IMG/VR virus record: IMGVR_UViG_2713896788_000013
Reading direction: 5' to 3' (one strand)
Length of the DNA: 10,130 bases
DNA from: a virus
Taxonomy: Duplodnaviria; Heunggongvirae; Uroviricota; Caudoviricetes
A program made the position numbers. This document shows, one piece after another, positions 1 to 6,000 of the stretch; the first letter of the stretch is position 1; every line of letters starts with the position of its first letter.

Positions 1-3000
1 CTGCCGTTGGTGTTCATGCCCGAGGCAGATAGCCTCAAGCACCCGCAGCAATTCTACTTAACTATCCTTTTCCCGCAAACCGTTTTTATCCCCAGCGGCA
101 AATCGAATACACCACCAGCGCCACCGCCATCGCAATTCCTACCGTTGTGAATGCTTCAGGCCAGGTCATTGATTCACCTCCTGCGGCGGTTCTGGTAGCG
201 ACATCCAGTGGGTTGCTTGCCTAAGATCATTACCCGGACTAACTGCTATACCTCCGCGCCGGAACGTGCCTCCGAGATAGCGTGCGGAATATATTAATGG
301 CCCAGCCTCGCTATCGATATTCATCGAAATAAGCACGTTCTGGCTCTTTTCAGGCATTCGCTCAGTACAGCTTATCCAGCCATCCAGAGTTATCGGAGAT
401 CTGGTTGACGTTTCCGAGATTTCCCGAAAATTGTTGGTTGACGAATTCTTATTTTCCCGAAAGTTTCCGGCCTGAAGCATGGCGACGCGGCAGGCGTTCC
501 AGCCATCAGCATATGTTTTAGTTACACCGTCGAGATGGCAGGTAAGCAAATCCATTTCATCAGGCACTACCATTGCTATCGGCTCTGCTTCCAGTGATGC
601 CAGCGCGATACGAAACACATTAGCCAGCAGGCTGTCTGAAGACTTGTTATCGTGCGCCGAGTCGCTCAGGAAGCCTGTGATGTATGATTTAATCTCCGCG
701 CGTTCTCTGGTAATAGTGCTCATATCAGTTTTCCTTATACGGATTAATTTTATTGTGCAGTGCGCTGAATGATTCCCATGTCACATCGGTATATAGCTCA
801 ATAACTGGTTCAAATGTCCTTCCAATTATCCAGACCAGTAATAGCGGGGATATCGGTATCATCAACACTATAAACAGAATGAAAAACAGAAACTCTGTTG
901 TTCTGCTCTTTCGTGGGTAATTTTTTTCTAAATAATGTTTCATTTCTTACCGCCCTTTCGGGCGGCCTCCTGATGTTCTGAGGGTGCAGGAATCCCTCCG
1001 GTTAAGGATTTAATAAAAATCGTTTCTGATTTAAATCTTCAGTATTTAGTTGTTAGTTGGTTTATCGCCTTTATGCTTCAGCCTTATTTCGCAACCAGAC
1101 ACAAACCGGGCCATCTTCCGTATCATGAATGGAACCAATAAACCAGCCATCGCCCTCTGGTCGTTCCGGTTCCCATGCAGAAATATCAGCATCACACGCA
1201 TCAAGGTCAGCACATCCTTCATCTCTGAAGCAGAGGACGTATTGAAGATTATTTTCCTCCATCCAGGCGTTAAACTCTTCCGTTGAAATATATTCCCGAC
1301 CATCACAGAATTTTTCATATTCAGGATGTGTCCAGTAGCCATATCCGTCACGAACTACCGGCATTTCTTTAATTTCACTCACTGTTAACCTCCTGCAACG
1401 CTACACGATACGCCTTCTTTATCCACGCCTTACTGCCATATAATTTCGTCTTCATAATAAACACACCTGCACGACTCGCCGATATCCCCGGACAGGTTAA
1501 CAGCACAGCATCCACCACACGGTTATGCTTCCGAAACTCCATTACAGTACTGCTGATAACCACCTGCCCCACCGGGCCGTAATCCTGATACAGGATTTTC
1601 ACGCAGACACCCTCCTGTCGAAATAAACGTAGTTATTCACTATGCGCAGCGGCATGCCTAATTTTCTGGCAATTTCCCTTCTTTGCATGCCTCTCTGATG
1701 CAGTTGCCGCGCCAGCTCAATATCACGCTGAGAATATTTTGCCGACGGGTGAAAATCACCACGTAACATCATGCTGATGCCCAGCTCCCGTGCCTTCGTT
1801 CTCACTGCCGCTTCAGTTCGTCCGATAAGTGCGCCAACGCTTTTTACCTTCATCGTTCCCGCACACTGCCGGAGTATCATGATTTCCGCCCGGCACCACG
1901 TCTTCCACCCACTCACCGCTGCTGTTCTCTGGTGGCGGTAATATCCCGGAGAATATCCCGGCACTTGTTCAGCTCCCGCAGCGCGGCGCAGACTCGCTCC
2001 CACTTCTGAACCTGACCTTTTGCCCGGCGCAGCTCGCGGTTAGCCACATGCAGCGATGGTAAAATCAGACCATCCGGATGCTTTCTGGTGAACGACGGCT
2101 GTGACTGCACTGTGACCGCCACACTTTCCGTTTTTATTTCTTCCTGTGTTTCCGCTTCCCCGACTGGTAACGCAACACCTGCTGGCTGAGGAAAGGCTTT
2201 ACCATCCGTTTCCGTTATGGATGCGGCTTTCGGCTCTGCCGGTAAATCAGCGCCCGGTATGCAGTACCGAAATTTACCGCCCTGATTCACGCGAATCAGA
2301 CGCCCTTTGCTGATTGCCATGGCCAGTGATGAATTCGCCCGGCGGGAGGTAATCCCGAACATCAGTGCCAGCTCATCCGCCGTTTGTGGGCCATGATGTT
2401 CAATCGCCTCAGTCAGCATTTGCGCTGTCACTTTCGGTACCGGTGACACTGGTTCACTTTCACCAGTCTGAGTCAGCCACCACATCGACCCCTTGTTATC
2501 CGCTTCACCACGGCGCTTCAGTTTCCACAGTTCGTTGACAGCATCTTCGCGGCTGATTCCAAGGCGCGATGCCACTACCTGTGAAGAGGCTTTTTTCAGT
2601 GCTTTCAGTGCGTCAAATACGGTTTCCATTAATATTTCCTCCGACAAAATCGTTTCTCAGATTCAAATAAAACCAGCTGCCTTCCGGCGTTCGTATTCCT
2701 GTTTCAGCCGTTCAATTGGCGTTGGCCCTTGCGGGTGTTTCGCCCCTTCCAGTTGTCGTCGCACTGGCGGAACACTCATCCCGTTACCAACATGCTTTGC
2801 CCATTTCGTCAGTTGCCGTTCCGCAAGTCGTTTTAACTCACCTTGCGTCATCTGGCGCTCAATCCCTCTGGTACGCATTTCGAGGCAGATGTGGTACAGC
2901 ACAGGCTGTGGCCACGGGTATTTATCACTCCCGTCGTATCGCCAGGATTCATTGCGCCAGCGCCGGTACTCTTCCATCACGGCATCCACCGTAAGACCAA

Positions 3001-6000
3001 ATGGATTTGCCCCACTCTCCGAAATCAGCGCAACAAACTCAGCCAGGTCCGGGGGCCACGTTTCACCCGCCCGGCAGCGGTCCATGCACTGACGGCACAC
3101 CAGACGGATTTGCTGTTCAGTCATCGCACCAATCTGGGCAATCCAGAGCTTCGAAGGTGCGGCCCCGTTCTTCTGAGTCCAGCGGTTCGAATACACCTCC
3201 CCCATGAGCTCCCACAGCTTCCAGGCCGTTTCCGTTGCTGATAAATCCGTTGTCACGTTCCCACTGTTCGCGTGCAGCCCGGATTTCCTGAACTGCCCGT
3301 GATGCCGTGCCACCTGATGCTGCATGGCTTCCCCCCTTGCTGACTGGTTTTACCTGTGCCCTGACGTGCTGCACGTGGCGGGCAAATTTCTGCTCCCACT
3401 GAACCTGCGTGAAAACCTTCCCCTCCGCCATCCAGTAATCCCGGAATGCGGCAAGCTCAGCAGGTGTAAATTCCGGCTCAGGCAGAGCCATACCCCACAC
3501 TGCTGCCCGTTGTCGAAAATCCGGCGACGGCTGCCAGACAGTAGTCATCGAAAATTTCCCGATCGGTTCGCTCAGGCCGTCCAGGTATTCAGGTTCGGCT
3601 GTCTGCAACGGCGCACCATTCGACTCACTGGTCGGAATACTCTCGCGCGCGTTATGTGTGGGGTTTAATTCTGTATCTGTATCTTTATCTGTATCTTTAT
3701 CTGTCGTGACTTGTCGTGACAGATGCGTGACACGTCGTGACTCATCGTGACAATCAGCATTATGTTTCCGCAGCTTTTCCCGCTCCCGCTGCGCTCTCTT
3801 GCGCTCTGCCGGGGATTTTGCCGTTTGCGAAACGTTACCATTGTCCTCTTTCAGCACCTGACGTTTTTCCCATCCGGAAATAAGGTCACCATCCAGAACC
3901 CGCCCCTGCATTGCATGCAAAATTGAATCAATTACGTCTTCCGTCACATCAAGCGCACTTGCTAAATCTTCCGTCGTGACATCAATGTGACCACGTAGTG
4001 ACACGCCGTGACATGTCGTGACATTTCGTGACGCGCTCACCAGAAGATGGATATACACTGCCATCACTGTTGCGATTGGCTGTCCTGATACCCTGGCAAT
4101 CGTTCGCCACTTGGGGTCATTTGGCATGTCATGCCACAATCTGAGCCAGGCATTAGCCATACTCACCTCTTCTGATACCGAACTTTACCCTCGAACATCC
4201 GGAAGAAATCCGGCATGAATATTGTTGGTCAATNNNNNNNNNNNNNNNNNNNNNNNNNNNNNNNNNNNNNNNNNNNNNNNNNNNNNNNNNNNNNNNNNNN
4301 NNNNNNNNNGGCCACCAGCAGAGGCGGCATTGCCTTTTCGATCGCCGGTAACAGAGCCTGCATTTTTTCAACTGCATCAGGGGTGTCTTTCTCTATCCAG
4401 CGGAAAATTTTCTGGGTATTGCGAGCCAGGGCTTCCGGATGGCTGTCGTCGTACAGTTCAGGAAACGTCATACCCAACTCAAAATAAGCCTGGGTTATTC
4501 CAGCTGCCGGAACTTTTTCGCCATCAGGACGCGCCCAGGCATTCATCGCCATGCGGATGTGTTCATGCTTGATTTTCATGAATCCCCCCTTGGTTAGAAG
4601 GCGGATTATGATCAGAATCGGGAATGACAACCGTCGGTATGTGTAACTCATATTTGAGCGCCCCGGCAGTGACTGCCTGAATTAGCAACGCCCATTTCCA
4701 CGGAACGTCTTCCCCCCACATGCTGACTGTGGTTTTTGACGTTCCTAGAGCGGCGGCTGTTTTAACAACTCCGCCAAAATAGCCTAATACTTCTGATTTT
4801 TTCATGAGTCGCTCCATAAAACTGAACGCCAAAAGTTTAATAATCAAAACCAAAGAAAGTCAAGAAACAAAACCATCTGTGTTTTAAAATCAAAACATGA
4901 ACAAGCAAACAATATCTGAACGCATAACCCAACGTATGCATGCGCTAAACTTGAAAGGCAAAGACCTTGTCAATGCCACTGGCGCATCAAAAGGCTCCGT
5001 AAGTCAATGGATGAACGGTGGAGGAGCGCCGTCCTCGCGTTACATAAGTTCACTGGCAAAGATATTGAAAGTAAACGAAAATTGGCTTCTTAATGGAGGA
5101 GAGTTAAATACAGGTGATTCGCTTGATCTATCTTTACCGCCGATAAAAACGGTTCCGCTACTATCACTTCAGCAGGCAGCAAGCTGGAGTGATTATATGA
5201 AAAATTCCTCAATAACCTCTTGTGTGCAGCTTGTCGGAGAAATCCCGGCCAATACCTTTGCTGTTGTTCTAGAGAGTGACAGTATGTCGACATCTGGTGG
5301 TGGAGTTTCCATCCCAAATGGTTCAACAGTTTTTGTTGATCCCGATCGAATCGTACAACCAGGAAATATTGTCCTTGCCTTACCCAAAGGGACCACAACG
5401 CCTGTCATTCGCAAACTGGAGATAGAAGGGCCGGATATTCTTTTAGTCCCCACGAATCCTCGCTACCCTTCAATTATGCTGGATGATCTATCTTGCATAT
5501 TGGGAGTATGCTTTAAAATTCAACAAGATATTTAACCAACCTCATCTATTTGATTAACTGTATGCCATCGTAGTGATGGCGTAACAGCTGCCTGCTTAAA
5601 ATGTTTTGATAAAAAAACATTGACCTTAAATGTTCGTTTTTCTAAACTTCATTCATTCCCTCACCCCGCCCCACAGAATGCAGGGCAATACTTCGAGTTA
5701 CCAGGCAGTGGTCAGGGGTTAAGTAGCCAGCCCGAGGCGTAAGAACATGACGGCAGGGTTCAACTTTAATAACTATGCAGCAGGTTTTTGTTCCGCTACC
5801 CCGGCGTTAAGGGGAAATGAGGTCAACATGGATACGCTCAATCTTGGCAACAACGAATCTCTGGTATGTGGCGTGTTCCCCAACCAGGACGGTACGTTCA
5901 CCGCGATGACGTATACCAAAAGCAAAACGTTTAAAACTGAAGCTGGCGCGCGTCGCTGGTTAGCCAGAAACACTGACTGATGAGGTTGACGATGGAATTT

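Follow-up and report, generated by a model that had tools for sequence, protein, structure and literature searches.

The window analysed here, a 10,130-nt stretch of DNA from a prophage of Escherichia coli O157:H7, carries an O-like replication initiator gene and a P-like gene, both on the minus strand (Table 1). The O-like protein (RefSeq record WP_001262402.1, from a 100% identical O157:H7 genome) has a replisome-organiser-type N-terminus, then a DnaT domain, and ends in a tail of about 75 amino acids (aa); it also matches PHROG replication-initiation families. The DnaT domain is its sole Pfam match; Phage_rep_O (PF04492) was not found in this protein, and a relative with the same tail (L020) does carry that domain. 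The repeat clusters inside the O gene are iteron-like and would mark the replication origin.

Table 1 Coordinates of the initiator–loader locus in the window
Feature	Position	Strand	Details
O-like replication initiator gene, 347 aa	3117..4160	-	ATG 4160; alternative GTG 4166
GTCACG-type repeat clusters, 10-nt spacing, inside the O gene	3695-3751 and 3970-4032		
A/T-rich repeat accompanying the GTCACG-type clusters	3670-3696		
DnaT DNA-binding domain of O	3354..3554	-	Pfam PF17948, residues 205-271, 62.6 bits; AF2 pLDDT ~90
Shine-Dalgarno-like AAGGGGGG	3331..3338	-	5 nt upstream of ATG 3325
P-like gene, long form, 220 aa	2663..3325	-	proposed start ATG 3325-3323
Dual-coding overlap, 209 nt	3117..3325	-	O codons 281-349 (ORF-list numbering) and P codons 1-69
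Region A, O frame dominant	3224..3325	-	O linker and helix ASRAVQEIRAAREQWER; helix 3255-3302
Region B, P frame dominant	3117..3223	-	P residues 35-69 WKLWELMGEVYSNRWTQKNGAAPSKLWIAQIGAM, first domain II helices
Internal ATG (Met41)	3203..3205	-	equivalent codon used by PGAP for ~180-aa homologues in Salmonella, Klebsiella and Citrobacter
O-tail acidic motif VFEPLDSEER	3165..3194	-	family consensus G..GxnL.EPLDxEE[R/W]
ATG of annotated short form (Met68 of long ORF)	3122..3124	-	overlaps O stop as ATGACTGA
Stop of O-like ORF	3119-3117	-	TGA; C-terminus reads ...DWCDD, then stop

Read in its long form, the P-like gene encodes a protein that scores 57.9 bits against PF06992 (Phage_lambda_P; cut-off 26) over residues 58–187 and matches PHROG 109 over residues 18–220 (E = 1.5e-62). 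A lambda-like P of 261 aa found by BLASTP covers the same residues 18–220, and that protein itself matches lambda P from residue 1. In a Foldseek search, the best matches to the AF2 model of P (mean pLDDT 69) were the lambda P chains of 9oa1 (E = 8e-5; 212 aligned columns; 9oa1_Z is full-length). Flexible links between the domains make the overall r.m.s.d. high; domain III alone aligned with 8v9s with a TM score of 0.88 and an r.m.s.d. of 1.6 Å. Sequence identity to lambda P is about 25% over 113 residues. Lambda P, a member of the same Pfam family, has four parts: a disordered N-terminal leader (domain I, residues 1–29/39), compact domains II (residues ~30–119) and III, and a C-terminal segment (PMC12661323). 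The AF2 layout of the P-like protein matches this domain I/II arrangement, with residues 1–28 predicted to be disordered (pLDDT below 50) and helices predicted at 30–53, 59–66, 70–85 and 94–106. An earlier, sequence-only reading had P begin at 3124 (Met68), as a protein corresponding only to the C-terminal two-thirds of lambda P; profile coverage starting there was to count against an upstream extension of the gene. The short form is not supported: both profile matches start upstream of Met68, at residues 18 and 58, the model aligns with full-length lambda P, Trp38 and other upstream residues are invariant, and Met68 is not conserved. The same reading also raised the pairing of a non-lambda-type initiator with a shortened loader; the initiator is indeed of another type, having a DnaT domain and no Phage_rep_O, but its partner does not appear to be shortened. 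On the strength of sequence and model, the P-like protein is most likely related to lambda P over its full length of 220 aa, and it is a predicted helicase loader.

Relative to O, P is read in the +1 frame, which has ATGs at 3325, 3205 and 3124. Direct reading of the sequence confirmed that, as claimed earlier, the frame stays open for 67 codons beyond ATG 3124, past the ATG at 3205 and up to that at 3325–3323; eight further codons are open upstream of it, from 3349, behind a stop at 3352–3350. Given the amino-acid sequence of O, only about 0.1 P-frame stops would be expected over the first 34 codons of the overlap, so the open frame is unremarkable in a single sequence and gains significance only through comparison with homologues. 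The long overlap is found here, in 36 other prophage or phage loci of gut bacteria and in Vibrio phages. An open P frame, the +1 relation and a Shine–Dalgarno (SD) sequence with an ATG at the same place were present in 37 of 37 usable Enterobacterales loci, among which P identity falls to 42–45%, and not one homologue showed a stop in the P extension. The frame relation is the same in Vibrio phages D67, D68 and 1.214.O, which show overlaps of about 190–212 nt counted from candidate ATGs, LW..(L/M)..(Y)...(W/F)..KNG as the P motif and HGQV.QEE[RW]G..D.D as the O tail. Both frames are open across these divergent homologues, that is, in the 37 usable loci and the three Vibrio phages.

These comparisons indicate that P most likely starts 201 bases upstream of its annotated start, at ATG 3325. 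The SD-like sequence lies within the O coding sequence, where it encodes O residues K-G-G and includes a run of six G (G6; 3331–3336). Across the 37 Enterobacterales loci, the SD and ATG sit inside the initiator gene, 149–227 nt (median 212) before the O stop, and in nearly all of them GGAGG, GAGG or GGGGG ends 5–10 nt upstream of the ATG, while the O amino acids encoded over the SD differ among loci. The O residue spanning the P ATG is His, Asn, Asp or Tyr, the complete set that NAT codons can encode, and the codon after it begins with G in every case; it is therefore the ATG that is conserved and not the O amino acid. This shared SD and ATG are a strong argument for independent initiation of P. 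In support of this start, tblastn alignments in 38 genomes start within residues 1–37 of the P query, and Trp38, Trp49, Lys52-Asn53-Gly54, Pro57 and Trp61, which all precede Met68, do not vary among the 38 homologues. Some Pectobacterium homologues may have a second, shorter start, because an ATG directly precedes the conserved AW.LW there. We propose that ATG 3325 is the start actually used: translation of P would begin from its own ribosome-binding site inside the initiator gene, and one 209-nt stretch would supply 69 codons to each gene in two frames, the final ones of O and the initial ones of P. We regard this joint reading, in which a full-length P has its own ribosome-binding site within O and the overlap is dual-coding, as likely. 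In most ribosome-profiling or proteomics datasets the prophage is probably repressed.

Both frames of the overlap carry signs of selection, and the dominant constraint switches midway. In the upstream half (region A), O would encode a conserved helix (residues 89–106 of a 150-aa construct in AF2) and P a variable, disordered leader: P residues 1–34, the equivalent of lambda P domain I, are rich in Q, S, H and G and predicted to be disordered, and their identity is 24% versus 34–41% for O. Codon position 2 of P, which is position 3 of O, is the most variable, an O-type pattern. No P-frame stop was seen in region A against 10 expected, the lowest of 500 resamplings having 4. In the downstream half (region B), P would encode the first two domain II helices (30–53 and 59–66 in AF2), and O a disordered acidic tail containing EPLDxEE[R/W] (residues 108–150 of the construct, AF2 pLDDT about 40). 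Here P reaches 56% identity with a P-type codon-position pattern, and O only 35–40%. Synonymous differences in the O frame nevertheless amount to 0.17 in region B versus 0.54 in the O-only part. When P was resampled synonymously, O-frame identity in region B exceeded the null (0.343 versus 0.271 and 0.317 versus 0.247; z 7.5 and 9.9), compared with z of 0.1–4.5 in control windows from the part that codes for P only, under a null that ignores shared ancestry, which these windows offset only approximately. Region B contains no O-frame stops against 22 expected; the control windows had 16–44, with 20–45 expected. The synonymous-constraint and codon-usage check proposed with the sequence-only reading thus gave signals in both frames, and its idea of an extended overlapping gene is supported by these and by the SD and ATG kept in 37 loci.

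In all 37 loci, and likewise in the Vibrio phages, O ends only after the acidic motif of its tail. The codon of an invariant P Lys that lies over the motif is AAG in 26 of 29 loci, compared with 41% in a control region (binomial 5e-8, uncorrected for shared ancestry), and two neighbouring third positions of P are G in 22–23 of the 29; AAG and each of these G yield Glu in O. One position of the motif switches between Arg and Trp, tracking the choice of AAC or AAT in P, which makes the apparent conservation of O in part a consequence of P. Another view is one in which the P overlap is real but the O tail over P domain II is tolerated read-through without function, the functional end of O being the region A helix. 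The P-type codon pattern and low O identity of region B would fit such a view, as would the free interchange of Arg and Trp, the varying length of the tail after the motif and the disorder that AF2 predicts for this part of O. We nevertheless consider it unlikely, since no O stop precedes the motif in the 37 loci or the Vibrio phages where 22 would be expected, synonymous sites of P are biased towards O glutamates, the excess of O-frame identity over the resampling null is larger than in any control window, and the motif is kept even where P is only about 36% identical.

The dual-coding reading with its start at ATG 3325 has also to be weighed against shorter forms of P. Initiation at ATG 3205 would give a protein of 180 aa (MGEVYSNRW...) and an overlap of only 89 nt. 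Many database entries of about 180 aa begin at this point, Met41 is nearly invariant and GGGAG lies upstream, though only 3 nt from the ATG. Yet Trp38, upstream of this start, is invariant while the O residue over it varies (G, A, D or E), the position of Met41 is Leu in three loci (L021, L023 and L027), Met41 falls inside the predicted helix 30–53, and the conserved SD and ATG lie 120 nt further upstream, which together make this start very improbable. Still less credible is the form annotated in RefSeq (WP_000139447.1, 153 aa), by PGAP and in several phage records, in which P starts at ATG 3124 by stop–start coupling (ATGACTGA) and it is only by accident that the frame is open further upstream. 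ATGA-type overlaps are the classic arrangement, seen in lambda O/P and in locus L048, and the composition of O makes an open P frame in one sequence not improbable. However, the upstream residues W38, W49, K52, N53, G54, P57 and W61 are invariant or nearly so in the 38 homologues and residues upstream of Met68 align with lambda-type P, whereas several homologues have Leu, Phe or Cys in place of Met68 and many loci have their O stop at another position; a start at Met68 would moreover remove the predicted domain II helices 30–53 and 59–66.

Least likely of all is that O and P are joined into a fusion by programmed +1 ribosomal frameshifting or transcriptional slippage at the G6 run, with no independent initiation of P: the run and its SD-like sequence do sit exactly where the frames would need to switch, a 1-nt deletion from it would join them, and O and the P ORF match positions 1–347 and 279–482, respectively, of the 482-position profile PHROG 15931, so that fused ORFs exist in phage databases, but no conserved slippery site was found at the frame junction among the loci compared, a homopolymer occurs there only in the E. 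coli clade (most loci have GGAGGT), the codons from SD to ATG differ freely, the ATG is kept through changes of the O amino acid as expected of an initiation codon, and many loci have a P-frame stop immediately before it. The two fused proteins met in the homologue search are rare (cluster sizes of 1), and differ in composition (DUF1376+P and P+DUF1627); for fusions of this sort, indels or homopolymer sequencing errors are the simplest explanation.

Comparison of the loci indicates that the O tail and P move together, as a unit, behind initiators of at least four architectures that differ in their Pfam domains: a DnaT domain with replisome-organiser, DUF1376 or HTH_36 N-termini; Phage_rep_O; DUF1376 without DnaT; and HTH_36/DnaD_N, in which a C-terminal stretch resembles, by eye, the C-terminal part of lambda O. 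In lambda, according to hybrid-phage genetics, the C-terminal part of O travels with its cognate loader P, and the same holds here; as in lambda, too, the loader directly follows the initiator and iteron-like repeats lie inside the initiator gene. Unlike lambda, where O and P share 4 nt (ATGA), the two genes here share 209 nt in two frames, and the initiator has a DnaT domain in place of Phage_rep_O. E. coli prophage loci L048 and L049 likewise encode a DnaT domain (54% identity over 72 aa) followed by a loader of the Phage_lambda_P family, but their initiator of 255 aa lacks the tail of about 75 aa, and their P of 261 aa overlaps it by 4 nt (ATGA). The P N-terminus thus exists without the overlap, and the O tail laid over it is therefore probably a derived layer.

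Long overlaps arising by overprinting are familiar in viruses, for example among the genes of phiX174 and in lambda Rz/Rz1, and the creation of long same-strand viral overlaps in this way has been reviewed (PMC8227390). The O/P overlap is a variant of this known type: one stretch of DNA is read in two frames, an ordered product faces a disordered one and synonymous variation is reduced. It differs in being a terminal overlap of coupled replication neighbours instead of a gene newly arisen within an older one, and in that the whole block of O tail and P recombines behind different initiators. The Rac prophage of K-12 offers a parallel in gene order (repressor, Cro-like gene, ydaT, initiator, loader and ydaW/DUF1627). 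Its YdaU and the Rac-SA53 initiator are 90% identical at the N-terminus, only the N-terminal 175 aa being common to both; the C-terminus of K-12 YdaU is different, and ydaU and ydaV lie 6 nt apart without overlap. The partners differ: K-12 YdaU is paired with YdaV, annotated as a putative ATP-binding protein and taken to be DnaC-like, and Rac-SA53 YdaU with P. We infer that the overlap would hold the O tail and P together through the recombinational exchange of initiator domains among lambdoid phages.

As to what the tail does, its association with this P subfamily and the analogy with the genetics of the lambda O C-terminus and P suggest that it may act as a tethered docking peptide that recruits P, with bound DnaB, to the origin. 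P loaders in general do not need such a tail, because a DnaT-type initiator that lacks it functions with a lambda-like P, the genes overlapping by 4 nt. More tentatively, and possible rather than probable in our estimation, the roughly 100 nt of region B may encode both sides of the initiator–loader contact, the acidic O peptide docking onto P, perhaps at the same domain II helices that the other frame of this DNA specifies. If so, the overlap would be a self-contained, portable recruitment cassette, which recombination could graft behind any origin-binding protein and whose division would destroy both partners.

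In this part of the window, genes lie on the minus strand in the order Cro-like, YdaT-family, O-like initiator, P-frame open reading frame (ORF) and DUF1627. In E. coli O157:H7 (strain TR01, for example), a lambdoid prophage is 100% identical to the segment at 2600-4200, and megablast finds matches to this segment in 2,536 of the 5,426 complete E. coli genomes, covering at least 80% of its length in 658. Pfam profile searches found the DnaT DNA-binding domain (PF17948) and no Phage_rep_O domain in the O initiator. Within the O gene, two clusters of GTCACG/CGTGAC repeats (about five copies each, with a spacing of about 10 nt) are followed by an A/T-rich tandem repeat, GATAAAGATACA..., and the arrangement resembles an iteron-type origin lying, as in lambda, within the initiator gene. 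Of two masked runs of N, the first breaks the YdaT-family gene just upstream of O. Downstream of P, the DUF1627 gene has a TTG start in the ORF listing and a later start in RefSeq (238 aa); the N terminus of its product weakly matches winged-helix and MarR-like profiles, as well as a Ren-like PHROG.

Coordinates of features in and around the replication module
Feature	Position	Strand	Remark
LexA/CI-type repressor gene	4897-5535	plus	divergent from replication genes
Masked N runs	4234-4309; 7168-7217		
O-like initiator gene	4160/4166..3117	minus	ORF listing
GTCACG/CGTGAC clusters	within 3670-3751 and 3970-4032		inside O gene
A/T-rich tandem repeat	3670-3696		inside O gene
G6 homopolymer	3331-3336		
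P-frame ORF	3325..2663	minus	220 aa
Overlap, 5′ half (region A)	3224..3325		
Overlap, 3′ half (region B)	3117..3223		
O stop codon	3119-3117	minus	TGA
DUF1627 gene	1913-2647	minus	TTG start in ORF listing

The sequence-only reading had described the O–P junction accurately: O ends in ...DWCDD, an ATG at 3124 overlaps its stop codon as ATGACTGA, and the P frame stays open for a further 67 codons upstream, to an ATG at 3325, with an extra ATG at 3205. P lies in frame O+1. In a single sequence this openness is statistically unremarkable, because the O amino-acid sequence there seldom permits stops in the +1 frame, and the case for an overlap therefore depends on comparison with other sequences.

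A scan of contigs, taking one genome per species, identified 38 Enterobacterales loci with P identities of 42-95%. Adding three phage records and leaving out of the statistics L031 and L040 (P at the edge of a decayed prophage), L039 (frameshifted P) and L042 (a fragment) gave 37 usable loci. In 37/37, the upstream long ORF ends inside the P frame and P is in frame O+1, with 149-227 nt (median 212) between the P ATG and the O stop. A GGAGG, GAGG or GGGGG motif ends 5-10 nt before the P ATG in nearly all loci. Across this ATG, the O codon specifies His, Asn, Asp or Tyr, exactly the set that NAT codons can encode, and a G invariably opens the codon after it. The ATG stays constant as the O residue changes, a pattern that marks a conserved start codon. 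These comparisons show a conserved ribosome-binding site and ATG inside the initiator gene, from which we infer that P starts at 3325.

Four loci deserve separate mention. In L039 (Leclercia adecarboxylata NCTC13032, about 2441-2692), the P frame passes into the O-tail frame (...WQVMGGNILEPVDAEEWGRTFGALDSPDRFDD*), a frameshift within the overlap that destroys P in what looks like a decaying prophage copy. The P-like genes of L031 (Erwinia sp. CGal63) and L040 (Erwinia sp. MMLR14_017) have short N termini of their own, no overlapping initiator and neighbouring host genes (ttcA-like and PTS-like by eye), and appear to be edges of truncated prophages. The replication module of L003 (PP818812.1, 'Actinobacillus phage vB_Apl-pPE4') is 87% identical in DNA to the E. 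coli prophage module, which is unexpected for a Pasteurellaceae host (recorded as Actinobacillus pleuropneumoniae) and may reflect contamination or a misassigned host.

Codon positions were compared across 29 non-redundant loci. In region A (P residues 1 to about 34), identity is 24% for P and 34-41% for O, and variation peaks at P position 2 (O position 3); by this pattern, region A evolves like O coding sequence. It encodes a conserved O element, A/S-R-A-V-Q-Q-I-R-A-A-R-E-Q-W-E-R, predicted by AF2 with moderate confidence to be a helix that follows a disordered linker. The stop codons that the sequence-only reading envisaged in homologues of the P extension did not appear, with 0 in the P frame of region A versus 10 expected. 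Region B, from AW.LW to the O stop, has 56% P identity and a P-type codon-position pattern. Divergence at P position 3 is 0.51 there versus 0.62 in the P-only part, and O-frame synonymous differences are 0.17 versus 0.54 in the O-only part. When each P protein sequence was held fixed and synonymous codons were resampled, O-frame identity in region B exceeded the null (0.343 versus 0.271 and 0.317 versus 0.247; z = 7.5 and 9.9), and 0 O-frame stops were found versus 22 expected, whereas z was 0.1-4.5 and stop counts were near expectation in seven control windows from the P-only part. Moreover, an invariant P lysine is encoded by AAG in 26/29 loci versus 41% AAG in the control region (binomial 5e-8, without correction for shared ancestry), and two third positions beside it are G in 22-23 of the 29; AAG and both G choices each yield glutamate in the O motif EPLDxEE. 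The next O residue alternates between Arg and Trp, following AAC or AAT in P, so the constraint does not fall on every O position. O never stops before EPLDxEE, and the length of its tail beyond the motif varies. The resampling set beside its control windows, the scarcity of stops and the codon bias argue against reading O-tail conservation as nothing more than a by-product of P. By these comparisons, around 210 nt are shown to be dual-coding, with signs of selection in each frame; together with the conserved start signals, they support the extended overlapping gene that had been proposed as one option. The models show that an ordered segment of one protein overlies a disordered segment of the other.

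The arrangement extends beyond the Enterobacterales. In a tblastn search of phage records, 124 Vibrio phage genomes match P residues 33-133 at about 36% identity, and in 3/3 Vibrio phages examined the match spans two annotated genes and P is again in frame O+1; measured from candidate ATGs, the overlaps are about 190-212 nt. These three phages share a P motif, LW(E/D)(I/L)(L/M)(T/S)E(Y/L)YTDK(F/W)I(R/K)KNG, and an O tail ending ...HGQV(H/D)(Q/S)EE(R/W)G...D(L/M/V)D. In sequence terms, each frame is thus recognisable at only about 36% P identity, with the short O tail still alignable. Across what appears to be a large set of Vibrio phages with this overlap (these three phages and the 124 records), the P-like genes are labelled 'hypothetical protein', and their starts differ between records. 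The idea that O in region B is functionless read-through is weakened by this conservation in Vibrio phages, as it is by the depletion of O stops and the codon bias.

The sequence-only reading had also supported a short P from 3124 (Met68), yet conserved residues, profile matches and fold all extend further upstream. Coverage does not begin at 3124 in either profile: within the 220-aa ORF, the Pfam P model covers residues 58-187 and the longer PHROG 109 ('P-like helicase loader') residues 18-220. Annotators place the start codon differently, giving homologues in a protein database search lengths of 220-223, 216, 188-189, about 180, 153 and 140 aa; RefSeq gives the identical sequence a 153-aa P, and phage records use 153 or 140 aa. 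The long form, which includes the peptides MQHQVARHHGQFRK... and ...TETAWK, carries a motif, AW.LWE.MGEIYSNRW..KNG..PS.LWIAQIG, that is kept down to about 50% overall identity, and W38, W49, K52, N53, G54, P57 and W61, all upstream of Met68, are invariant in 38 P sequences. An AF2 model built from the homologue alignment has a disordered segment (residues 1-28) and helices at 30-53, 59-66, 70-85 and 94-106. Among PDB structures, it is closest to the lambda P chains of the DnaB–lambda P complex 9oa1, and full-length chain Z aligns with it over 212 columns. Lambda P consists of a disordered N-terminal 'lasso' (domain I, 1-29/39), a compact domain II (about 30-119), domain III (120-192) and a C-terminal lasso (PMC12661323). 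Direct BLASTP of the window P against lambda P aligned residues 85-192 only, and the N-terminal correspondence is therefore established through the fold and an intermediate, a 261-aa lambda-like P that matches lambda P from residue 1 and the window P from residue 18. Taken together, the PHROG 109 match, invariant residues, modelled fold and bridging sequence identify the 220-aa ORF as the counterpart of the whole of lambda P. Of the suggested pairing of a shortened loader with a non-lambda-type initiator, the initiator half stands (DnaT, no Phage_rep_O) and the loader half does not, as 220 aa span all of lambda P. A start at 3124 would cost P two predicted domain II helices and is contradicted by residue conservation and fold. 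One at 3205 (Met41) would halve the first helix and is contradicted by the invariant Trp38 upstream and by loci that lack a Met there; neither Met68 nor Met41 is universally conserved among homologues.

A frameshift fusion of O to P, suggested by PHROG 15931 (a 482-position profile that looks like O–P fusions) and by a G6 homopolymer exactly where a 1-nt deletion would join the genes, is rejected because no slippery site is conserved and the P ATG is. In Rac-SA53 the run is one G longer (G7), and other relatives have it interrupted. Indels or homopolymer sequencing errors probably account for the fused O–P entries in databases.

The O tail and P behave as a module. They are found behind initiators of at least four Pfam-distinct architectures, the region upstream of the tail differing each time: a DnaT domain behind a replisome-organiser, DUF1376 or HTH_36 N terminus; a lambda-type Phage_rep_O protein; DUF1376 proteins without DnaT; and HTH_36/DnaD_N, with a C-terminal stretch resembling, by eye, the C-terminal part of lambda O. 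Likeness among these initiators starts at about the P ribosome-binding site. The YdaU proteins of K-12 Rac and Rac-SA53 are 90% identical over their first 175 residues and then diverge completely, and the loaders differ too (P-type in Rac-SA53, the DnaC-like YdaV in K-12 Rac), a clear sign in these sequences of a recombination joint inside the initiator gene. By contrast, a tail-less 255-aa DnaT-type initiator precedes a lambda-like P with an ordinary 4-nt overlap. As the P N terminus thus occurs elsewhere without the overlap, it is probably the older layer in region B, and the O tail is, on its observed distribution, specific to the window's P subfamily. Word-indexed protein searches with the 73-aa tail returned only eight short or partial E. 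coli entries and were uninformative; those with the 150-aa O C terminus returned mostly partial proteins and exposed the tail-less initiators. Exhaustive HMMER with an 80-aa tail, a single short low-complexity query of little reach, gave only 20 cluster representatives at E ≤ 0.001, with the tail C-terminal in the full-length matches (317-360 aa).

In lambda, hybrid-phage genetics assigned compatibility with P to the C-terminal part of O, and to our knowledge no structure has so far resolved how O engages P–DnaB. The cryo-EM maps of PMC12661323 do not show the O C-terminal domain. Because the tail and P co-occur and lambda offers this precedent, the acidic, disordered O tail and its preceding helix may serve as a tethered docking element for the window's P subfamily, and the overlap may lock tail and P together through domain shuffling of lambdoid replication modules.

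Both proteins come from known families, and what appears new is their overlap arrangement; a search of the open-access literature gave no description of it. The loader of this very widespread prophage module appears to be misannotated: the 140-180 aa given in RefSeq and in several phage records would, on the long-form reading, leave out up to two predicted domain II helices, and to express or model the annotated loader would be to study a truncated form. The overlap itself, about 210 nt on one strand, is conserved and links two interacting replication genes; with constraint passing between its frames and order in one product paired with disorder in the other, it offers a clean natural system for studying the evolution of overlapping genes. 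The O tail is a concrete, testable candidate for how unrelated initiators recruit P-type loaders, and the overlap could account for the ability of lambdoid phages to swap origin-binding domains without losing initiator–loader compatibility.
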